DNA from: Macrostomum lignano
Taxonomy: Eukaryota
Direction: 5' to 3'
Assembly: GCA_002269645.1 (NCBI GenBank)
Contig: NIVC01004777.1
Coordinates: 1-35,214 of the forward strand
DNA: 35,214 bases
A program made the translations under genes and the position numbers. Of this stretch, positions 14,196 to 35,214 are shown one piece after another. The stretch's first letter is position 1, and each line of letters starts with the position of its first letter. The notes beneath the pieces are model-generated. The model had not been told where the DNA came from and did not search any database. It worked only from the letters and a program-made list of their open reading frames with translations.

Positions 14196-14838
14196 ACCGG
14201 GCACTTCATTAGCTTTGTGTCAAAGTACAATTGTGCCAATGGATTTCCAAACGAAGCAGTCGCATATAATGGAAAATTTGCCTGACTGTGGCTCATTATG
14301 TTTTAATTAATTGTTTTAATTTTAGCTAAGATAGATCATAACAAATTTAATTAAACAGCAAACTAAAAACACTTATAGAAACAGTTCTTTTTAGAAAAAA
14401 TACGCGAAACAAGCCTACTTATTAAGTAGTGTGTCGCTAGGTTTGCAATTAGTTTAATGGAATAAACAGTCAGATTAATTGCACCTCCTAGAGTATTCAG
14501 ATTTGTATAAATCTGAGCACACAGACTATTCAAATAGGATAAGTAGGAGGTGCAAACATGACTACTTAACTTGGTCAGAGTATCCTACTCAAATAACCGG
14601 GTTGTTGACAAAGGATCAAAATGTTGCGATCAGCTAAGGATATAATGCATTTTAAAAATGGGTAAGAAAAACCAAGACTGAAAATTCTAAAATCAACCTA
14701 TCCATCGTTTAGACTGGCTGCAATTTCTGCGAAATAAACATACAAAAATATCAATTTGCTACTGGTTGCCGCACTTCACGCTTAGAGACAGTATCTGATA
14801 TAGAGAACTTTGTGTTTCAAGTATCTAGATATATAAAC

Positions 14839-15318
14839 CTGGGGTCGGCAAAGTCTCTCTATACGGCCCTCGGGTTATTTGAAACTTCACAATAAGCAAT
14901 CCGGCTCGCTTTGGGTTTAAGTCTCTTCTCTCCCCTCCTCTCTTCTCTCTTCTAAGCCCTCTTATCTTCTCTCTTCTCTCTCTTCCTCTCTTCTCTCTTC
15001 TCAGCCCTCTTCTCTTCTCTCTTCTCTCCCTTCCTCTCTTCTCTCTTCTCTCTTCTAACCCCTCTTCTCTTCTCTCTTCTCTCCCCTCCTCTCTTCTCCC
15101 TTTTCTCCTCTCTTCTCTCCCATCTTCTGTCACCTGCATGTTCTCTCATTCATCTCTCATCTCATCTCCTTTCTCTCCTCTCTCAAATCTCATCTTTCCT
15201 TCCTCTTTTCTCTCTCTCTCTCTCTCCCTTTCCTCTCCTCTCCGCTATCATCTGGCTGGCAGCCATGAGCCAGATTCTCCATCTGGCCGTTAAGGTTAGA
15301 AAAAATTCCCGACCCCTG
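14839..15318. mobile_element. Non-autonomous hAT (Charlie-like) DNA transposon, 480 bp
   Basis: Imperfect TIRs CTGGGGTCGGCAA and TTCCCGACCCCTG. Flanks ATATAAAC (14831-14838) and ACATAAAC (15319-15326) form an 8-bp target duplication with one mismatch. Confidence 0.75.
14930..15240. repeat. CT-rich simple repeat inside the hAT element
   Basis: Direct. Confidence 0.9.
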
Positions 15319-16134
15319 ACATAAACTATGCTTTGAGAGGCCTCAAGCGCACGCTACAAATTTAATCTATCAAAACGGCATGGCTTGAATTCTCCGGTTC
15401 CTCAGTTTGCACTGGGTGGGGTTGGCGATGAAGGCTCATACGGCTGCTGTACCAACATAAATATTTCTCACCTGGTCTGTCTTACCTTAAAGCTTAAAAT
15501 CCCATGGGAATTATTGAGCATAGAGATTGCGCGCCAATGAGTAGCTTGTAAGCGCACTTACAGTATACCCTTCCTCTCCTCCTTTACCATGCAGCCACCT
15601 TCCCGGGCCTCTCCCTTCCCGCTTCTCCAACTTTCCCATACACCTGACTAGAATGGCGGAGGGTGGGAAGGCGATGGGGGGGGAGAGACCGGCAGCAGAC
15701 AATGCTGAGAGCCGTTCTACCATCCCATTGCCTGCTCATTGGTTAACTGCTCACTGCTCAAAACTTCATTGAGTTCAGCGAGGCCCGCTCAGCCGTCACT
15801 CCCGTACCGCCGCCACCCCACAACCTCCCCCTATTCTCCGCGAGTGTCTAACAAAAGCATCTGCCCTAATATCTCAGGACTTTGTCGCTCAGAACTGTAA
15901 CCGTAGTGTGTAGGCCAATCCAACATTGTGCAGCTGCTGTTTCTGAAAACAGAATTAGAGTAATAGCTATGCTGGAGTGATCAGCAAAGAGAAGAAGCAA
16001 TAATCTGCCACCGCAACAAGCAGGAAGAATAGGTGTGGGCCTCCATTCAGCACTTGAAGAACAGAAGCGGCAATCTCACCCTGGCTGGTAAGACTGGGAA
16101 ATTTTGATTTTATTACTTATATTAGTCAGTTAGT

Positions 16135-17457: not shown

Positions 17458-18513
17458 ATGTCCACCATCAATCTGAGCTTTCGATCGCCAATTTATTCAG
17501 CTGCAGCTGGGCACGCTCGACACGACTCGTTGGTGTGGCGGCAGCTGATGAAGCGCTGCCCCGGCCCCGCCCGGCGCCACCTAAACCGGATGCGAATTCG
17601 CAGCCCGAAGCTCCGGCTGGCACTCGGCCTCCCAGCTCTGCTCCTGACGCTGATGATCGCCTCGCATCTGGCGCACCGGCTGGCCAAGGAGCTGGAGTTC
17701 TTCCCGGCCATACCGATGTTGCCCCTGCACTCGACCGGCGCCAGCGCCAGCGGCCGAGGCATCCCTCCGAGCTTCGTGCACCAGTCGTGGAAGTCGGCCA
17801 GCCTTCCAAACCGGTTCTCTGTCTGGTCGGCCAGCTGGCGCCGCTGCTTCCCGGACTGGCAGCACCGGCTGTGGACGGACGCCGACAATGCCGACTTTGT
17901 GCGTCGGAAATTTCCCGACTTCTATCCGACTTGGCGCTCGCTGCCGACAAAGATTGAGCGAGTGGACTCTGTCCGGTACCTGTACCTGTACAGCATGGGC
18001 GGCCTGTACGCCGACCTGGACTCGGAGTGCCTGCACCCGTTCCACCACCTGCTGGCCAACTGCAGCGTGGTCCTGGGCTCGATGTCCGTCGGGTCCGGCT
18101 GGACAGCTTGGCGAATGCCGTCCGGCCTTGTGCAGAACTCGCTGATGTACAGCCGGCCGGGCCAGCAGATCTGGCTGGACGCAATCCAGGAGGTTCAGCG
18201 TATCGCCAGCCAGCGCCGGTGGAGTCTGCTGACGGGCAGCTACCCGCTAGAGGAGGACCGCACCGGGCCGCTGATGCTGATGCGGCTGCTGAAGAGGAAC
18301 TGGGCAAGCTACAGTGGCTCCGTCTGTCTCTACAGGCCGGAGTTCTTCAACCCGTTTAGCTGGTTCGGCAGTGACCCAGCCTGCCGGACCCTTAACGGCA
18401 TGACGGCCGATGAGCTGGAGACCTGCCGCAGGCGCTACAACTCCAGCTACGCCATCCAGTACCACACCCAGGTGTGGCGCCACGGCAAGTCTAACATGGC
18501 CAGGGCGAGCTGA
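17458..18513 (+). CDS. DXD-motif glycosyltransferase, GT32/OCH1-SUR1-like, type II membrane protein; single coding exon
   Basis: N-terminal TM (LRLALGLPALLLTLMIASHLA), IPPSFVHQSWKS, LWTDADN, IERVDSVRYLYLYSMGGLYADLDSEC (DxD) and TGPLML. Intact 351 aa. The true start may be the later Met in MKRCPG. Confidence 0.85.
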   Translation: MSTINLSFRSPIYSAAAGHARHDSLVWRQLMKRCPGPARRHLNRMRIRSPKLRLALGLPALLLTLMIASHLAHRLAKELEFFPAIPMLPLHSTGASASGRGIPPSFVHQSWKSASLPNRFSVWSASWRRCFPDWQHRLWTDADNADFVRRKFPDFYPTWRSLPTKIERVDSVRYLYLYSMGGLYADLDSECLHPFHHLLANCSVVLGSMSVGSGWTAWRMPSGLVQNSLMYSRPGQQIWLDAIQEVQRIASQRRWSLLTGSYPLEEDRTGPLMLMRLLKRNWASYSGSVCLYRPEFFNPFSWFGSDPACRTLNGMTADELETCRRRYNSSYAIQYHTQVWRHGKSNMARAS

Positions 18514-24830: not shown

Positions 24831-25183
24831 AAGTTAGCAGATAAAGCAGTAAAAAACCACACGCACAGACACAAGCGGCTTATAACAAAGCAAGTCAGTC
24901 AATAGACAGACTGCCGCCAATACCGCAAACGATTAATTAGTTAACCTGTTTTCCAACTGTACAGCATAACCAAGGCTAAGGCACGCGCGAATCGAATCGA
25001 ACAGGACAGACATAACATGGATGCGAAAGACAGAGGGAGTAGATTTTGAAACGTGCAGTTCGTTCGAATCCAATTACAGACGAGAGAATTGACCCGTATT
25101 GCTTTTAGTAATTAATAACAAAAGAAACGTTTTTTTATTTCAACTTTATCATTTGATAAATAGTCAATATCACCTTCTGTCAG

Positions 25184-25668
25184 ATTCTGTATGACCCAGA
25201 CTGTGGATTCTGTATGACTCAGACTGAGGATTCTGTATGACCCAGACTGTAGATTCTGTATGACCCAGACTGGGGATTCTGTATGACACGAACAGGGGAA
25301 TCTGTATGACCCAGACTGGGGATTCTGTATGACCCAGACTGGGGATTCTGTATGACACAGACTGGGGATTCTGTATGACCCAGACTGTAGATTCTGTATG
25401 ACCCAGACTGGGGATTCTGTATGACACGAACAGGGGAATCTGTATGACCCAGACTGGGGATTCTGTATGACCCAGACTGGGGATTCTGTATGACACAGAC
25501 TGGGGATTCTGTATAACCCAGACAGGGGATTCTGCATGACCCAGACTGGGGATTCTGTATGACCCAGATCCTGTAGATTCTGTATGACCCAGACTGGGGA
25601 TTCTGTATGACCCAGACTAGGGATTCTGGATGACCCAGACTGGGGATTCTATATGACCCAGACTGGGG
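25184..25668. repeat. 23-bp minisatellite (GACCCAGACTGGGGATTCTGTAT), cut mid-unit by the element at 25669
   Basis: The last unit ends ...GACTGGGG|AGTAGT where ATTC would be expected. Confidence 0.92.
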
Positions 25669-25908
25669 AGTAGTAGGTAAAAGTACGAGTCTATCCCTGA
25701 GAGCACCTATTAAACATACGATTTGAAGGTCTAGTGGGGGGTACTAGGGGAAACTTAAAAAAACACAAATAAACACATCTAATCTCCCCAACAATCGAAA
25801 AAAACCAAAAACAAAATCTGAATCTAACCCCCTAGTACCCCCCACAAGACCTTCAAATCGTATGTTTAATAGGTGCACAGTCCTATACGCGTACTTTTAC
25901 CTACTACT
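25669..25908. repeat. Terminal fold-back inverted repeat, copy 1
   Basis: Arms 25669-25750 and 25829-25908 pair as a 19-bp stem, bubble (15/13 nt), 30-bp stem, one mismatch and 17-bp stem, around a loop of about 78 nt. Confidence 0.95.
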
Positions 25909-26010
25909 ACACAACCAACACTTACTAACTCTTCCAACACTTCCAACACCCACAACTCTTTCTAACCCCCGACCGCGCCGCAGGCGCTTGGGGCACAAAG
26001 GCTTTTATCT

Positions 26011-26280
26011 GATGACTAACACAGGAATTCGGGGTTCTATTCACGCTACACACAAACAAGTTTGCATTGCAACAATATAGACGGCTATAGCAAACTTTAT
26101 TCTATCGCCCGAAGGGTCGCAGACACAGTCTGATGACTAACACAGGAATTTCGGGGTCTACTCGCGCTACTCACAAACAAGCTCACATCACAACAATAGG
26201 GTCGACTATAGTAAACTTCATTTTATCACCCGAAGGGACGCAGACACAGTTTATGACTAACACAGGAATTCGGGGTCTTC
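26011..26280. repeat. Subterminal direct repeat, about 121-bp unit, 2.2 copies
   Basis: ATGACTAACACAGGAATT starts at 26012, 26133 and 26253; the units are diverged but colinear. Confidence 0.9.
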
Positions 26281-26599
26281 AAGTGCCCATTCACCCACAG
26301 CACGATATTCTGAGCCTTGCATTTTATTCAAACCAAAACGTGAGGCTAAATTTTTTTTTTGATTTTCGAAAATTTTTTCTCACGTTTTGCTCTCGCCACG
26401 TGACTAGAATGGAATGCATGAATTCTTTCTATTATCATGAAAATATATATATATATGAGCACCCCAGAGCATGAATTAGCTCACATATTTTATCTTCGCA
26501 AATTTTTCTGAGCAAGGTTGTGAGGTTCTTTGAATGCGCTTATATTGTTTTTCAGCTCTATTAGTTCTCTCAATATCTTATCATTAAGCAGCTAGTAAA

Positions 26600-27331
26600 A
26601 TGAACGACAAGGAAATTGAAAGCATTTATGAGCAATTTGAAGAGTCTAACAAAGAAAAGCAATACATCAATTGCTTTATTTTTGAATCGCCTTCCAAAAG
26701 AAAAACGCGGTTCCTTCAATGATACTTTGGTAAGCCTCGTTCATCAAGCCACCGATAAGACGATTGAGGATGACGAATCTAGTAGCAACAAGAAGAAATC
26801 AAACAAAGCCGAACAAAGTGCGAGATTCATTGTCAACTTGAAAGCGTGGCTATCTAAGCATCACACTGAGGCGATTCATATCAAGACAGACTATCGAGAG
26901 CTGGAGAAGCTGATCAAGGCTGAAATCACATCTGACGACACTGCTACTAGCTTATACGCGGAGCTATGCATCATTGAAGAAAAGGTCGATGAGATTAAGG
27001 GAGTAATTGGCGCCAAAAAGCCGACACCATCGCGTTTCTATCCGAGACTATGAGCAATCAGGAAATTCAAAGTCGTCTTAAGTGCGGCGACAACTATGTT
27101 TCACGAATGAAAACTTTCCACAAACTTTGTGAAGACTATCCGGCTCTTCGTTTCGCGCCATACGCATATAACACAATTTTGCAGTATAAAACCACCAGTG
27201 AGTCTGCTGCAAACTCAGACGAAGACTTTTGCTCGATGTTGAAGACACCTCTGACGCCACAATTCGAAGGACGCGATGACAAAATAGCAGTGGGGATCAG
27301 CCGGAAAGTTTCTATTAGCCATCGGAAATGA
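26600..27331 (+). pseudogene. Polinton hypothetical protein, probably one gene broken by indels; possible C-terminal helix-turn-helix
   Basis: ATG 26600 (MNDKEIESIYEQFEE...) shifts into ORF 26616-27053, which overlaps ORF 27050-27331 (MSNQEIQSRLKCGDNYVSRMKTFHKLCEDYPAL). Confidence 0.45.
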
Positions 27332-27685
27332 TTGATTTTATTTGTTTTAAATAACTGATAATAACTGAATCGCTTGTTTTAGCCATTATTCAATAACAGT
27401 TTATAATTCCACACCATTTTAGCCACTATCAACAGTTTTATAATGTATAACATTTATAAAGAAAAGCGCCAACTGAGTCAAACTAAACTAACACTTAACA
27501 AAATTATTTACTCTCTTACTCCTCATTGTTCCTTTTACATAGATAAATGCGGCAACTCAACTAGCGCCAATCTTTATAATTATAAAGAAAAGCGCCAATT
27601 CTAGCCACACTAAGCTCCTATGGAATCTAGCCTATTCTTTTGAGTGTTCACGCATTCATTTTTCTGTTACTAAAAATAGACAAAA

Positions 27686-29019
27686 ATGGCACACCATACG
27701 CAAGTATACAATCTGAATGAATTGCAAATAGGAGACCCAGTAGAATACCGAGGTGAGTGTCTTTTTGACATAATAGGCGCCGCAGCAAATACAATAAAAG
27801 ATAATATGCCACTAATAGCACAAGCAGGCTCAGCAGCAGGCTCTGTAACCAACGCAGTCAAGGGTGGAATAGAAGCAGCTAAGGCAGCAGAAGAGCTCAA
27901 GAAATTGAGAGAATTTAACGACACCCTCTCGCAAATAAAAGCAATAAAATATTTAAAGCTAGCACAAGAAGCTGCTCAAGCCGCACAAGCTACTGAAACA
28001 CCTACTAAAAGTAACCCATTGAGCAATAAAGATATCCAAGATTTTAATAAAATGTTGTAGTGATCCGCTAGTTGATGTTAGGCGTCCCACTTTGTCAGCA
28101 GTCTCCCTCGCCCTCGCCCTGGGTTGCTGTCTGCCGCTGGTCAGCTTCCCGCCCCCCTTGGCCCGTCTGTTGCTGCCCTTGGCCTGTTCTGCCCTTCTGC
28201 GTCTCTGTTCTCAGCCCTCAGCTTCTCTGCTGTGGGCTGTCTCTGTTTCGTTCCCGTCCCGTTTTCCTCTGTCATGTGAGCAAGTCACATGACAGACTCT
28301 GCGTTCTTCGAGTCCTAAAGTGCAGTAAACATGTTTACTGCACTCGTTGGCCCTGTTTACCGGGAGAATCACGTGCTTTCGGACCCCTCCCTTCTCTAAG
28401 GAGAGGAGTGACTCATGTTGCTAAAAATAGCAACTGAGTCACAGCCGCGTGTACTCTGGCCGGAGACCTCAAGTGACGTCAGTTCTAAAAATAGAACGAG
28501 TCACGAGGTCTTGTGCGTGGGTGTTTCCCGTCTATAAATAGGACCCCTCTCCCCTTGTTTCCGTCAAGGAGGCTTCTTATCTGCGGAGAATTCACTAAGA
28601 TCCCGTGTGCGTCAGTGTCTAACTAAGTGCCCTTTGCGTACTGAATCCGTTTGTACTGGTCTGACTGAGACCCCACTAAAGCCCAAGCCTAAGGGAGGCT
28701 AACACTGCCTTCCCAGCCACCCCTGAGCCCGGCGGGGATCTGCTGATCAGGACGCCTTGTTCATTAATCTGCAAATCTGCACGCTGTGCTGAGTTCGTTG
28801 ACTTGTTTATTTCGTTCCGACGGGAAGCTCACCTCATCGAAGGCCGAGACCTGAAGGAACTGGTGGCAGCACTACCTACGCTACTGAGAGTTGAGAGAAC
28901 TTCCCAATGAAGAGGCTCGAGTCTTAAGGTAATCCGCAAGGGCCTAATCCGGGAAGCAAACAGCCAGTATTTCAATGTTAACCACAATTAAAGGTGGAAA
29001 AGGATTAAAGAAGTTTTAG
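27686..29019 (+). CDS. Polinton small Ala/Lys-rich protein (about 136 aa) split by the solo LTR
   Basis: Removing 28056-28978 restores ...DIQDFNKML-TTIKGGKGLKKF* in frame. Confidence 0.65.
28056..28974 (+). mobile_element. Solo LTR, 919 bp, probably Ty3/Gypsy type
   Basis: TG...CA ends; 4-bp target duplication ATGT (28052-28055 and 28975-28978); GC-rich relative to flanks; TATAAATA at 28533; excision restores the interrupted ORF. Confidence 0.8.
28319..28541 (+). promoter_or_regulatory. Dense enhancer/TATA module in the solo LTR
   Basis: GTAAACA/TGTTTAC x3, CACGTG, TGACTCA/TGAGTCA, TGACGTCA, CTAAAAATAG x2 and a TATA box. Motif matches only; function inferred. Confidence 0.55.
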
Positions 29020-29029
29020 TAATATAAAA

Positions 29030-29239
29030 ATGGACTCAGATAATGATGAAAATCGCACACTTTTCATATCTGAAATAGTAGACAGTTTAAATTTAGATGA
29101 TAACAAACATAGCCACACAATTTTTAAACGAATCGATAGATTGGGTAAAAAATTGGATTATGATATTGACACGTTTAAACTTGCTAGAAAATATGCACAA
29201 AAAGGAAGACCAATCTCATTTAAGCTTAGTAATTTCTAA
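29030..29239 (+). CDS. Polinton hypothetical protein, 69 aa
   Basis: ATG in TATAAAAATG context; its 3' end overlaps the 3' end of the convergent ORF. Confidence 0.5.
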   Translation: MDSDNDENRTLFISEIVDSLNLDDNKHSHTIFKRIDRLGKKLDYDIDTFKLARKYAQKGRPISFKLSNF

Positions 29240-29690
29240 TAAAAATTTTGTTGGGATGGAAAAATCAATTCCAATATAAAATAGGGTGAAATATCGCTCG
29301 ATCATTAAATCCTGCTCGGCAGATGTTTTATATTTTTTCTGAAACTCTAATATTCTTTCACACGCTCCTTTGTAATCTTCATACCAAAAGGCATATCTTG
29401 ATCTTCTTTTTGCGCTATTTTCACATGCAACATAACTCCTAAAAGGCTCCAATTGAGAAATTGAACTATGACTCATAACTATAATTTTTTATAATTTTTT
29501 TACATCATCAATTGGTTCAGAAAACCCAAAATATAAGCCCTCTTTACCTGGCGGCTTGGAATTTTTTATATCATTTAAAACTCTTAAATAATCTTCTAAT
29601 TTAGTTTTAAACATATGTATATGTAACATTTGTATTCTCTTCCTCAAAGTATACCAAAATAACTTCAATAATATCTATAGTTTCCTTCAT
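29216..29690 (-). pseudogene. Polinton hypothetical protein (about 155 aa) with frameshifts
   Basis: ATG 29690 in TATAAAAAATG context. Segments MKETIDIIEV..., LEDYLRVLNDIKNSKPPGKEGLYFGF... and ORF 29216-29476 lie in successive frames. Confidence 0.4.
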
Positions 29691-29693
29691 TTT

Positions 29694-30265
29694 TTATACT
29701 TCAAAATATGGATAAATCTGCAAATATGAAACTCCTGGATTGCCCGAACCACCAGTAGCGGTTGTGCAAAACAATCTATAAAAAGTATAAGCAATTGTTG
29801 TATACGGTAAATTAAAATATTTAATTGCTGTTCCAACCAAACCAGCAGTAGTTGATAGTAAATCAGTCCATGTGGAGCCGTCATTACTTCCTTGAAAGAT
29901 AATATCGTTTGGGTTTTCACCACTCAATCTACCAACTAAAGAAAATCTCCAAATTTTTACTGCGCCCGGAAGTTAAATTTTCTTCATTTCCTGTTTGCTG
30001 TTTCACCATTTGTTGCCCACTCATTATCCGAAGCAAAATTCTGATTAAAAGCGCGAAATCCTTCATATCCTGTAAAATTCGTTGATGTTGTTACAAAAAA
30101 TGTGGGGTCGTTATTATCAAATAAAGTTGGAATGTGCCCATTAACATTTTTCAATCTGTCAAATTGAAACTTAGTAACGGCTTCGCTATCGTTGGTTGGA
30201 TTCGGTAGATTGGTAATAGCATTTCCACCCATATCAATTACTTGATCAATTATTCCTAAATTCAT
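29694..30265 (-). CDS. Fibre-like module 2: stalk repeat plus F5/8 type C (discoidin)-like domain; one frameshift near 29930-29985
   Basis: DMGGNAITNLPNPTNDSEAVTK stalk motif; FRAF...EWAT, FQGSNDGSTWTDL and FYRLFC parallel module 1. Confidence 0.65.
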
Positions 30266-30280
30266 TTTAAGAACCGCTGA

Positions 30281-30896
30281 TCATGAAGTCTGACGATAAA
30301 TCTGCATTGCGGATAGACCCGGATTTGTTGAACCGGATGTTGAAGTAAGACAAAATAATCTGAAATATAAATATTCTTTATCAAAATTTTGTGTGACATT
30401 AAATGTTCGGGTTGTCGATGATAATGCAGTATTTTCTGTTAGAATTAATATGTCCCAACTTGTATTGTCATTACTCCCTTCAAATCTCCATGACGCGGGG
30501 TGCTCGGTAGATGGCGATGCTCTCCCAGTCAAATCAATTTTATTACAAAGTATTGCAGATGGGCATTGAACTTTTATCCAATAATCGGTTTGAACTCCAG
30601 CAGTAGCCCAATCAGTTGTTGAATCTGCATCAAACGCTTTCCAGCTTGCAAAATCAGTTGTGTTAAATTCTGAGCTGGCTGTAATTGCAAAACCATTTCC
30701 ACTCCAATCAGCCATGGTTGGAATTTGACCAGTTTCTGTCAAATTAAATCTGTCTTGTTTCATATCTAATAAATTGTCGGTCTCTGTTTTTGTATAACCA
30801 CTAGATGTGTTTACCAAATTATCAACTTCGGTTTTGGTATATGAATCATATATTTCGTTTTAAATTTTATGAATTATCAACTTCGGTTTTGGTATA
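30281..30896 (-). CDS. Fibre-like module 1: YTKTE(V/T)DN repeats plus F5/8 type C (discoidin)-like domain; 5' part removed by the Gypsy insertion
   Basis: Three YTKTExDN repeats (the most upstream is out of frame), then ITASSEF...WKAFD...DWAT...WIKVQC...WRFEGSNDNTSWDIL...YFRLFC. Confidence 0.72.
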
Positions 30897-31104
30897 TGTT
30901 ATGTTAGAAGTCAAGGCGAGTGTGTGCGAGATACGAAACGCTTAAAGCCAGCGATGGGCAGAGAGCCGATATATATATTATTGTTTAGTCAAGTGCAGTG
31001 AGCAATGTACATTGTACGCGTCAATGGGGGACTAGGGGCAGGTGCACTGAGAGAGAAAGAGAAAGACTGCACGTCGGCTAGCCAGCATCGATCATTACAC
31101 AACA
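30897..31104 (-). mobile_element. 3' LTR of a minus-strand Ty3/Gypsy element, 208 bp
   Basis: TGTTATGT...ACACAACA inverted ends; polypurine tract AAGGAGG (minus strand, 31111-31105) directly abuts it. Confidence 0.75.
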
Positions 31105-31400
31105 CCTCCTTACATTGAAAAGTACGAATATAATGGCACGAAAATAGTAGCACGAATAGAGTCGCACGAAAACAGTTGAATGGGGAAAAATAAAAACATT
31201 GAAATATTTTACGATCATATGGAACAATACAATATTAATGTTGAAAAATATCATTTTAGACCGCTTTTTAAATCGCACGCTTGAGCAGCAAAGGCAACAC
31301 ATCAACTTATGCTATACCTCCTTTCACCAAAATTATAGAAACTTAAAAAGAGCTTTCAGTTCCTTTAAATTCAGTCAACAGTCAGTTTTCACTCAAAAGT

Positions 31401-32888
31401 TCACCACGAGGCCTGGTACCTCTGCGGCTGATGGACAAGCCGACCTCGCTTGGTCCGGAACCCAGAGTCGTCCGAGCTTGAGCACGGTTGCACAGATGCC
31501 GGCTGCTCAGCTGGCTGCACTGGCTCTGCAGGCTGCTCTGTCGCGGGTTGCACGGCCGGTTGCACGGGTGCCTGCTGGTCGTCCGCCTCCGACAGATTGA
31601 CATCCTCATCAGCCACTGCCACTGGGTAGCTTTCATGGAATGGCACGCCGATCTCACGTGGCCTGATAAACCGCCGGTTGCGCCTGAGCAGCTGGCCCGA
31701 CTCCGTGCGAAGCCAGTACGACCGCGGGCTGCCGTCCACCTCGCTGTCGACCTCGGCAGCCACCCAGTTCCGACGATCGCACTGAAGCCAGACCGGCTCG
31801 CCGACCTCCAAGCGTCGAAGTGCGCGCGCACCGCGGTTGCAGAGCTGAGCTGCCCGGGTCCGCTCCTTCTGGAATGCTTCGATGCTGGCATGCACGTAGG
31901 TCTCCCGAGGCCGCAGATCTTGCACCGTTGTCGGCAGGTCGCACCGCAGTTTCCGGCCAAACGCCATTTCCGCCGGGCTGGGGAAGCCGCTGCCGACCGG
32001 CGTGTTGCGATAGTGCAAAAGGGCCAGTGCCAGGCTCTGTCCAGTCTCCTGGCACTTCTTCATCATATTCTTGGCAGTCTGCACATATCGCTCTGCTTTG
32101 CCGTTGGACTGCGGGTAGGCCGGACTCGATGTCCGGTGCTCCACTTGAAATCTGGTCATGAACTGGCGGAACTCTCCTGCGGTGAACTGCGGCCCGTTGT
32201 CACTGATGAGCTTCTCTGGCACTCCAAAGTTCTGGAAATGGTCTTGGAGCACCTGAACTACTGCCAGGCTTGTTGTCGACCGCAGGCGGGTGATGCTCAT
32301 CCAGTGGCTGTAGGCGTCTACGTACACCAGGTGCGCAGCGCCCCGGAACTCGAACAAGTCGGTCGAGCAGACTTGGAACGGAAACTCGGGCATTTCAACG
32401 GTCATCAAAGTCTCCTTTGACTGGGCCTTCATGTTACGCTGGCAGGCCTCGCACTGGCTGACAGTTCGCTCGATGCAGGTGCGCATTCCTGGCCAGTAAA
32501 AATAATCTTTGGCTTTCAGGTCCATCTTGACGATTCCAGGGTGTCCAGCGTGCAAAATTCTTAGGATCGAGCTTCTGGCGCTGCCGGCTGGCACGTAGAT
32601 GCGGTCCTTCAGGCACAGGAGTCCTGAGACGAAAGTCAGATCATGGCGAAGATCCCAAAATACTCTCAAATCGTCAGGTAATCGGTTTCGATGCTCGGGC
32701 CATCCGGCTTGAATGACCTCCTGCAGACGCTGGCTCGTCTGGTCTGCAGCCGTGGCCTTCTTGATCATTGTCAGAATCTCGCGGTCTCCACTGAAGCATC
32801 GCTCCACAGCTAGCACTTGTCCGTCCAAAGCTTCCTCCAGCAGAAGCGTCAGGCTGTCCGTCTTTCCGTGAGCTCGGCTTAGCGTGTC
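31401..32888 (-). mobile_element. Ty3/Gypsy pol 3' part (end of RNase H, HHCC zinc finger, DDE integrase); cut at 32888
   Basis: DTLSRA, LHAGH...WPGM...CEAC, STDLF / SDNGPQF / NGKAER, and C-terminal RTKRGRLVHQPQRY. The frame is intact for about 495 codons. Confidence 0.93.
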
Positions 32889-33164
32889 AGTAGTATGTAA
32901 AAGTACGCTTCTAGCCCCAGAGCCCTTTTCAAACAGACGATTTGAAGGGCTAGAGGGGGGACACGAGGGGGAACCAAAAAACACTCTTAAACACCCTTTA
33001 TCCCCATCCAACACCCCCAACACCCCCAACACTACACAATACTACTAACACCACCCAATACTACTAACACTTCCAAACAATTCCCTCGCGTCCCCCCATT
33101 ATTAGCCCTTCAAATCATCTGTTTGAATAGTGACTGATCTAGAAGCGTACTTTTACATACTACT
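32889..33164. repeat. Terminal fold-back inverted repeat, copy 2
   Basis: 26-bp perfect stem, bubble, 25-bp stem with one mismatch and an imperfect G/C stem; loop about 32974-33080. Confidence 0.95.
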
Positions 33165-33219
33165 ACTTATAACCCCAGGCCGCGCCGCAGGCGCGAAGGG
33201 TCTTTTTCTGTTACTAAAA

Positions 33220-33522
33220 ATGAACCGAGTTTACACCTTTTCAGTTAGCGATACTTTTGAGACTGTTGCTAAAAATTCAGAGATTATAAAACAACATATT
33301 TTGAATGGAATAATTGATGAAGTTTATTTAAAATATGACGATAAGCACGAACTAAAACTTTATCCGTTAGAGTTGGATGGTTTGTATGATCTAGAACAAG
33401 AGGGTGAGTTAATATTTCAACTTGGAGATTATTTAAATTCGGATGATTGGGAGGTTCGTTCAGATGATTCCAATTCAACAAATAGTTCATATGAAACCAG
33501 CGATTCAGAAAATTATTGTTAA
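33220..33522 (+). CDS. Polinton acidic hypothetical protein, about 100 aa
   Basis: ATG 33220 in AAAAATG context. The listed upstream extension from 33130 is hairpin sequence. Confidence 0.55.
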   Translation: MNRVYTFSVSDTFETVAKNSEIIKQHILNGIIDEVYLKYDDKHELKLYPLELDGLYDLEQEGELIFQLGDYLNSDDWEVRSDDSNSTNSSYETSDSENYC

Positions 33523-33537
33523 AAAAATATATAAAAA

Positions 33538-33771
33538 ATGAAGGTAAATCGTATCAACGATACGCATGCAAAGCATGATTATTCCTACATTGGATATGTG
33601 CCAATTAATGAACTTAATGAAAATTTAAGTTTGATAACAGTTGAACAAATGTCAATAATAATATTAGTAACAATAATAGTGATAATTTTGTTTTTATTTG
33701 TTATAAAAATTTATTACCATGTTGTCTTAAGTAATTATTATTTAAAAAATAAACTAGAAAATGAGGTCTGA
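33538..33771 (+). CDS. Small single-TM protein, 77 aa
   Basis: TATAAAAAATG start; hydrophobic IIILVTIIVIILFLFVIKIYY. Confidence 0.6.
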   Translation: MKVNRINDTHAKHDYSYIGYVPINELNENLSLITVEQMSIIILVTIIVIILFLFVIKIYYHVVLSNYYLKNKLENEV

Positions 33772-34150
33772 TTTTGCAAACAATTATGCCAGCACTTATG
33801 ACAGCGCCCATCCTATAGCAGAACCGCCCCTTTTATTTGATAAACACAAAGATTGTAAAGAAAAGGATGCTAACGACCTAACTGAAGCGAAATTCAATCT
33901 AAAGATTATAATTGCTATTATTTTACTAGTCTTACTTGAGATGATTATTTTTCCCGCCTTATTTTTATCTAAAAAATTAAATATAGAAGGAATACCATAT
34001 AATGAAAGAAATATAAACTTCGCAATAGCATTAATAGCAATATCAAGTACATTACTAATAATTGCATTACTTATATTAATTATTACAATTTCAATACTGC
34101 TTAATGATAAACGAAAACAACATAACTCCCTAGCTTCATTTAAAGTCTAA
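33761..34150 (+). CDS. Two-TM membrane protein, 129 aa
   Basis: Two long hydrophobic segments; overlaps the upstream stop and ends 1 nt from the integrase stop. Confidence 0.65.
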   Translation: MRSDFANNYASTYDSAHPIAEPPLLFDKHKDCKEKDANDLTEAKFNLKIIIAIILLVLLEMIIFPALFLSKKLNIEGIPYNERNINFAIALIAISSTLLIIALLILIITISILLNDKRKQHNSLASFKV

Positions 34151-34151
34151 A

Positions 34152-35214
34152 TTAAACTAACATTAGCTGGTTCTCATAAAACGAACCTAATATTTCTTCA
34201 CCATCCTTATCAGCAATGATATAGGTTGTGGGATTTGTATTTAAAACTTTACTGATAGTAAATTTCTCACTTATTTTCCAATATCCTTTTCTTCCCTTTT
34301 CAAACTTATCTTTCCATTTATAGATATACACAGAATCACCAACCTTAAAAGGTTTCTTTTTATTTTTTTCAAAGTCCCCGAAGGTAACATTAACATTTTC
34401 AGGCTTGTTATAAGCTTGTTGAGGAGTCATCTTTATAGCTGAATGATATGAATTGTTATAATCTTTCACTACGTCTGGTAATATTTTTACCCATTTTTGG
34501 TTTCCATTCAAACTAAACTGAAACCATAATTTTTTACCTAAAGTTCGATTAAATCTTTCTATTAATGCGTTTTTGCTTTCTCCATAAATAGAATAAATTT
34601 TATTAATATACTCCCCATTCGCGTCCTTTTTCCTTTCTTGTCCTTTTTCAAAATGATACAATTTATACATGTGAGGATTGTAAAATTCTTTTCCTTCGTC
34701 AACACACAACCTTTCACTTCTTTCTCCAAGGCTTCTAAAAGCAGCAGCAACCTCCTCTCCCTTTTTGGATTTTAAAGGAACAGCCCACGCGTATCGAGTA
34801 AAACCATCTAATATGGTTAAGATATATTTATATCCTCTATCGTTCGGCATTGACATTAAATCAGCATACCAAATTTCATTCTTTTTGAAGTTCATGATTT
34901 TTCTATAAAATTTAGGTTTTCGGTATTCTTTATGAAGAACTTTTGCCTCATCAGAACTTAACCCACTACCACTTAACAACAAACAGTCAACACAATTATT
35001 TCCATGTTGGTTGTAATTAATTCCTAAACCAAATTTAACTTTAGATTGCAAGATCTTTTTAACCATCCACCGAGTTAATCTTTGGCTTACCGATAAGCCC
35101 TGTAGATTATCTAATCCTTGAATCATCTTTTTATCGGCTTCATGTTTTAATCTTAATGCTTCCTCGGGAGTATCTTGTCAGCATCTCTGTATGCTAAGTC
35201 ATGATAATATGCTA
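34152..35214 (-). CDS. Maverick/Polinton retroviral-like integrase with an upstream parvovirus-type PLA2-like segment (one indel near 35177; 5' end outside window)
   Basis: LHKEYRK, WYADLM, YILTILDGFTRYAWAVPLKSK, VDEGKEFYN, IERFNRTL, YNNSYHSAIKMTP and FKVGDSV (DDE). Upstream: AYYHDLAYRDADK/DTPEEALRLKHEADKKMIQGL. Confidence 0.92.

Follow-up and report, generated by a model that had tools for sequence, protein, structure and literature searches.

Related large-loop fold-backs form a probable end structure of Polinton-type elements in a contig of Macrostomum lignano

Two related fold-backs, at positions 25669-25908 (copy 1) and 32889-33164 (copy 2), lie in contig NIVC01004777.1 of Macrostomum lignano, whose 35,214 nt were analyzed here as a single stretch, hereafter referred to as the window. 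Each consists of two arms that can pair around a large loop, with a bubble interrupting the stem, and together they raise the question of what such a structure is and whether its pairing serves a function. A sequence-only reading of this DNA had proposed that the pairing is maintained by selection or by arm copying, and had regarded differences mirrored in both arms as the strongest evidence of function. Our analysis indicates that the fold-back is a real and probably functional end structure of Polinton-type elements, a conclusion supported by two copies whose elements are seen without their right ends or a polymerase. The case for it, however, is better made from the position of the fold-back and from what the two elements share than from the mirrored changes.

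The existence and the kinship of the two structures are supported both by motif counts and by folding, in agreement with the earlier claim that a second fold-back related to the first lies at this place. At up to 3 mismatches, the window contains exactly four matches to a 19-nt end motif, one in each arm (25669+, 25908-, 32889+ and 33164-), and none of 100 shuffled sequences contained a match; beyond these four, no further copies of the arms were detected in the window or in the phage collection. When folded as DNA, copy 1 reached -70.9 kcal/mol (z -17.2) and copy 2 -62.5 kcal/mol (z -15.75), with no equally stable sequence among 200 shuffles in either case. The minus strand of copy 2 is more stable than the plus strand (-69.4 vs -62.5) by virtue of two G.T pairs that correspond to CpG/CpA positions and may represent decay; copy 1 showed no strand bias in folding. 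The motifs and the layout described by the sequence-only reading as common to both copies were recovered in part. The second shared motif is exact in three of the four arms, but the right arm of copy 2 carries a C.A mismatch (32938/33117), and a bubble is indeed present in both copies, but its outer edge shifts, leaving an outer stem of 19 bp in copy 1 and of 26 bp in copy 2.

That reading was sound on the fold-back itself but silent on the fact that the first arm is the terminus of the element, which is the key to the mechanism proposed below. The pol frame of a Gypsy-like retrotransposon remains open up to 32888 and is cut precisely at the first base of copy 2, so that copy 2 starts at an insertion junction, and the start of element 1 at 25669 cuts the last unit of a 23-bp satellite. 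Both elements open with (AGT)2 at a junction. A terminal (AGT)2 or (AG)3 motif at the element boundary is expected of Maverick ends, and an (AGT)2 start with its (ACT)2 mirror are the commonest end motifs of vertebrate Mavericks (PMC8097293). In addition, copy 2 adjoins, at a distance of about 1 kb, a PLA2-linked Polinton integrase. This integrase (34152-35177) has 433 homologues, and among the 120 matches listed many carry PF08398 (PLA2-like) and/or PF00385 (chromo); in the Atlas it groups with PLA2/integrase clusters of Preplasmiviricota and eukaryotes. Its identity with the integrase of L001, a Polinton recovered in our search for relatives, is 38%. Further genes of L001 specify a double-jelly-roll capsid, an A32 ATPase, a PLA2-like protein and a PolB, the last recognized from motifs by eye, Pfam giving no polymerase match. 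PLA2X genes mark one class of adintoviruses, according to the available text of PMC8502044. The (AGT)2 end at a junction, taken together with the PLA2-linked integrase, thus identifies the first arm as a Polinton-type terminus and the second as an internal inverted copy of it. On the strength of its end motif and of its integrase, we class element 2 as a Polinton.

The right ends of both elements lie beyond the window, together with the inverted repeat and the 5-8-bp target-site duplication expected there, and no ORFs for pPolB, packaging ATPase, protease or capsid were found in the visible parts of the elements (2.3 and about 5 kb). Since no pPolB lies in the window, protein priming is assumed from the family. 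Integrase and pPolB, singled out by the sequence-only reading, are indeed the relevant proteins, the former encoded beside copy 2 and the latter expected from the family. The features of both elements are compiled in Table 1.

Table 1. Features of the two fold-backs and of the elements that carry them, with positions in the window
Position	Strand	Feature	Evidence or remarks
25669-25750	+	Copy 1, terminal arm and left boundary of element 1: outer stem (19 bp), bubble, inner stem (30+17 bp)	
25751-25828	+	Copy 1, loop, 78 nt, 2 G	
25829-25908	-	Copy 1, internal arm; triplet repeat runs 2 nt past the pairing	
25975-25987	+	Mini-hairpin of element 1 with GCA triloop, likewise inside a short stem	Same 13-mer as 33182-33194
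29694-30859	-	Fibre/lectin-like ORFs of element 1, in several frames	Pfam F5_F8_type_C (F5/8 type C domains); fibre-stalk-like stretch
30897-32888	-	Gypsy-like LTR retrotransposon, one LTR (30897-31104), integrase region of pol	Pfam rve, Integrase_H2C2; LTR edges
32889-32914	+	Copy 2, terminal arm and left boundary of element 2: outer stem (26 bp), opening with the Maverick motif (AGT)2	26/26 pairs with 33139-33164
32915-32927	+	Copy 2, bubble, terminal-arm strand; opposite 33128-33138, 2 nt longer	Anchor-to-anchor 23 vs 21 nt
32928-32969	+	Copy 2, terminal-arm side of the inner stem and of the G-rich stem	10+14 bp around one mismatch, bulge, 8+6 bp
32972-33082	+	Copy 2, A/C-rich unstructured loop, 111 nt, 0 G	Five G-runs on minus strand
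33083-33164	-	Copy 2, internal arm, repeating the terminus in inverted orientation	Triplet repeat 2-3 nt past the pairing (33165-33167)
33182-33194	+	G/C mini-hairpin of element 2 with GCA triloop, inside a short outer stem	13-mer identical in both elements
33203-33221	+	19-nt box, ends at ORF start; element 1 counterpart 27659-27677	Sequence comparison of the elements
33216-34150	+	Three small ORFs of element 2; membrane stretches predicted in two; no family match	ORFs, Pfam
34152-35177	-	Polinton-type rve integrase; tail of a PLA2-like domain ahead of it	Pfam rve; frame shifts near 35170-35180 (by eye)

Element 1 is probably of Polinton type as well: its proteins tie it weakly to the group, and it shares the end module and carries fibre/lectin-like ORFs. 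Its stalk ORF gave weak matches to ORFs of L001 and of a second recovered Polinton, L002 (E 0.009 and 0.003, respectively, in a 265-ORF library), whereas homologue and Atlas searches with two element 1 proteins came back blank and yielded no firm family beyond the lectin domains. No rve integrase was found in the visible part of this element. The Gypsy-like retrotransposon was inserted in element 1 and then cut by element 2 at 32889, and the stretch from 25669 to 35214 accordingly displays nesting at three levels, a Polinton-like element containing a Gypsy element that contains, inside its pol, a second Polinton. Element 1 also harbors a probable solo LTR (28056-28974) that shows a 4-bp target duplication, bears no relation to the Gypsy LTR and holds two short palindromes (28268-28296 and 28319-28344). 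Directly inward of its end, a 121-bp repeat is present about 2.2 times (26008-26278), as is typical of sub-terminal repeats. The same short C/A-rich repeats occur outside the fold-back in element 1 (25909-25960) and inside the loop in element 2 (33007-33084). The window as a whole consists mostly of satellite arrays, amid which lies an intron-less, GC-rich glycosyltransferase ORF (17458-18513; Pfam Gly_transf_sug).

Comparison of the two copies bears on whether their pairing has been maintained. Among the 64 pairs common to both, nine have changed on both sides, eight pair in one copy only and 47 are invariant, counts drawn from two sequences that also served to derive the structure. Nine two-sided changes were reached by none of 500 shuffles, and slid controls gave between 0 and 2. 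Viewed from the left arm, nine of the 12 differences between copies are mirrored in the other arm, which has a probability of about 5e-9 if the arms change independently and of 6e-5 at a generous rate. Three of the nine mirrored changes (columns 39, 41 and 43) are alignment-dependent, in that they can alternatively be read as one mirrored 1-nt indel, leaving six mirrored substitutions plus that indel. The mirrored changes thus rule out independent decay of the arms, one of the outcomes that the earlier proposal had named as refuting it; both of the mirrored examples it quoted are correct, and selection or arm copying must act on the pairing, as it held. They do not, on the other hand, constitute its strongest evidence of function, or any proof of it, because arm-to-arm copying gives the same pattern without selection: through template switching, one arm of an inverted repeat becomes the template for the other and the arms are homogenized (PMC8604942, available text). 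Six of the nine two-sided changes are transversions and none of the 64 pairs varies on one side only as a wobble, a pattern that, as far as two sequences can tell, fits one-step DNA copying better than two-step RNA compensation. For a DNA inverted repeat, covariation analysis of the R-scape type cannot separate copying from selection.

Better evidence of function is provided by the shared module, the old bubble, the G-poor loops and the mini-hairpin. The DNA common to both elements comprises essentially only the fold-back, the mini-hairpin and the 19-nt box, the last of which is a probable promoter or translation-start signal. Identity between the copies amounts to 18/19 in the outer arms and to 37/71 in the loop, and the outer stem is the perfect stem in both. 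In the bubble segment, like arms score 20 and 16 against 9 and 12 for the cross pairs, and in each copy the terminal strand exceeds its partner by 2 nt (anchor-to-anchor, 24 vs 22 nt in copy 1). The excess of like-arm over cross scores and the shared 2-nt asymmetry suggest that the bubble escaped the homogenization of the flanking stems, and by this comparison of sequences the asymmetric bubble looks older than the split of the two elements. Against this, the right-arm bubble strands have only three of six bases in common between copies. When tested against scattered mismatches, the co-location of the bubbles is significant (26 of 20000), but with one block per copy as the null it is not (P 0.21, with the block width set at 14 nt), and it is therefore no proof; if copying tracts end wherever they meet a mismatch, the bubble might be retained neutrally. 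The loops are poor in G (2 in 78 nt and 0 in 111 nt), whereas the interiors of the elements contain 18% and 13%. A G-quadruplex was considered and rejected, since the five G-runs of loop 2 are matched by one in loop 1 and are thus not conserved. As regards the mini-hairpin, GNA loops are described as compact in single-stranded DNA (PMC5449611, available text).

Relatives of element 2 were sought by means of the integrase in contigs of bacterial and archaeal genomes, where 10 of 106 candidate stretches proved to be related. These Polinton-type contigs (L001-L010), binned in ten prokaryotic assemblies, are probably contamination, apparently stray eukaryotic or viral contigs. The present fold-back was absent from all ten related loci when these were compared with its arms and with themselves, seven of the ten having also been window-scanned for local inverted repeats, which indicates that the module is lineage-restricted. 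Two other (AGT)2 ends lack a tip fold-back, one at L004:1800 (z -3.1, first 13 nt unpaired) and one at L007:12067 (z +0.8), so that the fold-back is no general requirement. L001 and L002, which are 93% alike over 9.4 kb, have a 63-nt hairpin of their own inside the terminal repeats, and in one of its four copies a single pair differs on both sides; structured Polinton ends may hence be more widespread than this module. The terminal repeats of these two near-complete Polintons from bacterial bins (L001:149-274 and 15351-15490; L002:339-464 and 14725-14853) contain two internal hairpins. A further related contig begins with a 414-nt, 90% palindrome that runs into coding sequence (L006:1-414) and is probably an amplification or assembly artefact.

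We propose, with a probability of roughly 45%, that the fold-back is an end module of Polinton/Maverick elements, a local panhandle that would re-form and repair the element end on single-stranded intermediates. The prevailing racket model, as set out in the available text of PMC4196379, has the distant ends of a single-stranded Polinton anneal for protein-primed copying, with short terminal repeats supporting initiation. In the end module proposed here, the first arm is the element's own terminus and the second an internal inverted copy located about 240-280 nt in. A strand made single by excision or by strand-displacement copying could then fold locally at each end into a duplex of ~80 bp, which would re-create the end for terminal-protein/pPolB initiation or for integrase binding. 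Because each end would fold by itself, ends 15-20 kb apart need not meet as they do in the racket. With the 3' tip paired on the internal arm, the internal copy might template the fill-in of a shortened end, for which Streptomyces telomeres offer a precedent (PMC5449611), and copying across the folded stem would change both arms together; an outer stem that is perfect in both copies is as expected of such re-templating. Selection would keep the two conserved motifs, leave the loop open and retain the bubble, which lies 20-27 bp from the tip and would either let the short outer stem open or bind a protein. We know of no direct demonstration of the racket model, which itself comes from sequence analysis.

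Both internal arms extend the triplet repeat 2-3 nt beyond the integrated end, a single homologous observation. Retroviral-type integrases trim two bases, and the extra internal triplet may therefore represent the untrimmed end. A bolder version of the proposal, which we regard as speculative and on balance doubtful, would have an animal Polinton lineage carry a built-in spare of each end, on which the single strand would fold both to form a local origin and to regain the 2-3 terminal bases lost on integration; such a mechanism would replace the racket and join protein priming to a hairpin-type telomere.

The same geometry would permit a folded 3' end to prime synthesis across the element, leaving a closed, mismatched hairpin end to be resolved later, in the manner of parvovirus and poxvirus telomeres and as proposed for the Halocafeteria virophages and PLVs. 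The strand with its 3' end at the terminus would have its tip on the internal arm and the interior as template, terminal palindromes have been proposed as primers (10.64898/2026.07.28.741278, available text), and mismatches of the vaccinia hairpin are functional (PMC8956199, available text). We nevertheless consider self-priming unlikely, given that triplet repeats at the end are characteristic of protein-primed jump-back initiation (PMC4196379; for adenovirus, PMC5449611; available text of both), that no HUH or resolvase gene was seen in the element parts within the window and, as a weak argument, that the loop has the same orientation in both copies. Another account would make the second arm the neutral product of one template switch that duplicated the end in inverted orientation, later kept perfect by arm copying, with only the first arm being of consequence. 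The homogenization of arms by template switching (PMC8604942, available text), the six transversions among nine mirrored changes with no wobble intermediates, and the Polinton ends that do without a fold-back are all compatible with such a duplication. It does not readily explain why the structure was kept in two elements whose interiors can no longer be aligned, nor their common bubble asymmetry, their near G-free loops of differing length and sequence and their second shared hairpin, and it too appears improbable.

If folding were incidental, the unit could act as a double-stranded dyad of integrase or origin-binding sites, or as a MITE-like unit that the integrase could move on its own. It does resemble a miniature element with both Maverick end motifs, and its two motif blocks are conserved in sequence, but the 6-mers flanking each of the two fold-backs differ, so that there is no 6-bp target duplication, both copies run on into the shared mini-hairpin and 19-nt box, and no solo copy was found in the 35 kb of the window. 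The MITE reading was rejected on these grounds, and sites alone predict neither a G-free loop nor mirrored changes between the motifs; we consequently give this family of explanations little credence. Strong predicted folding might also betray a structured RNA, and artefact-like palindromes do occur in databases, as at L006:1-414. Yet Rfam gave no match at the gathering score in 25000-35214, one-sided variation of the G-U type is lacking, the fold-back starts at the first base of the element, and chimeric reads would not give two diverged copies with the same layout, bubble and downstream motifs, all of which makes an RNA or an assembly artefact very improbable.

Polinton exit and end regeneration rest at present on the racket model, and the end module makes this part of the cycle assayable. 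Being self-contained within 240-280 nt and available in two natural variants, it offers a defined substrate for folding, binding and end-repair assays, and self-folding ends may show how such elements rebuild their ends on copying. Through it, a feature described from protist virophages in a 2026 preprint, whose authors ask for a global survey, becomes known from animal-type Polintons as well. Of the published screens, at least two are, from their available text, blind to a fold-back of this kind, one through a gap limit of 10 nt (10.64898/2026.07.28.741278) and the other through a kilobase minimum loop (PMC11131425).

Among known systems, the terminal inverted repeats of Polinton/Maverick elements, or adintoviruses, are alike in their (AGT)2 end, in a PLA2-linked rve integrase near the end and in their integration in a eukaryotic genome (PMC8097293, PMC8502044). 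They differ in that the standard model pairs two distant ends (PMC4196379), whereas here the end is duplicated in inverted orientation within the same terminus. In the available text of these and related sources, the term "hairpin" is absent from PMC8097293, 10.1101/2023.08.22.554363, PMC11131425 and PMC8502044, and "palindrome" from the last three; across this literature together with PMC11296320 and PMC6431247, and in library searches, no account of a terminal fold-back with a large loop and a bubble came to light for animal Polintons, though Repbase, the founding papers of 2006-2007 or supplements could hold one. The terminal-protein telomeres of Streptomyces likewise have a terminus that pairs with an internal partner and GNA-loop hairpins nearby, and fold-back templated repair of truncated 3' ends has been shown for them (PMC5449611, available text). 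They are, however, bacterial, rely on Tap/Tpg and involve 13-bp pairing among several short palindromes (PMC5449611), and we claim no homology. The GCA loop described here lies on the 5'-terminal strand, unlike that of Streptomyces.

Parvovirus hairpin telomeres resemble the fold-back in having a long stem with maintained unpaired bases at the genome end. The same likeness extends to poxvirus hairpin telomeres (PMC8956199, available text). The viral telomeres, either covalently closed or serving as primers, have small loops and occur as flip/flop isomers; in the present fold-backs, the loop has the same orientation in two of two copies. A further parallel is provided by the virophages and PLVs of Halocafeteria seosinensis, in which palindromes beside the junctions have been described and hairpin priming proposed (10.64898/2026.07.28.741278, available text). 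In both cases the structure accompanies an rve integrase and sits at the edge of the element, beside the junction inside the terminal inverted repeat in those elements and with its first arm at the junction here, where placement in a terminal repeat is inferred. The Halocafeteria palindromes measure about 52 nt, were collected with a gap limit of 10 nt, go mostly with non-pPolB replication genes and belong to a protist host. The present fold-backs have a Maverick triplet end, arms of 80 bp with a conserved bubble, and loops of 78-111 nt, which lie beyond the reach of a 10-nt gap limit. Short terminal palindromes have thus already been reported in protist virophages.
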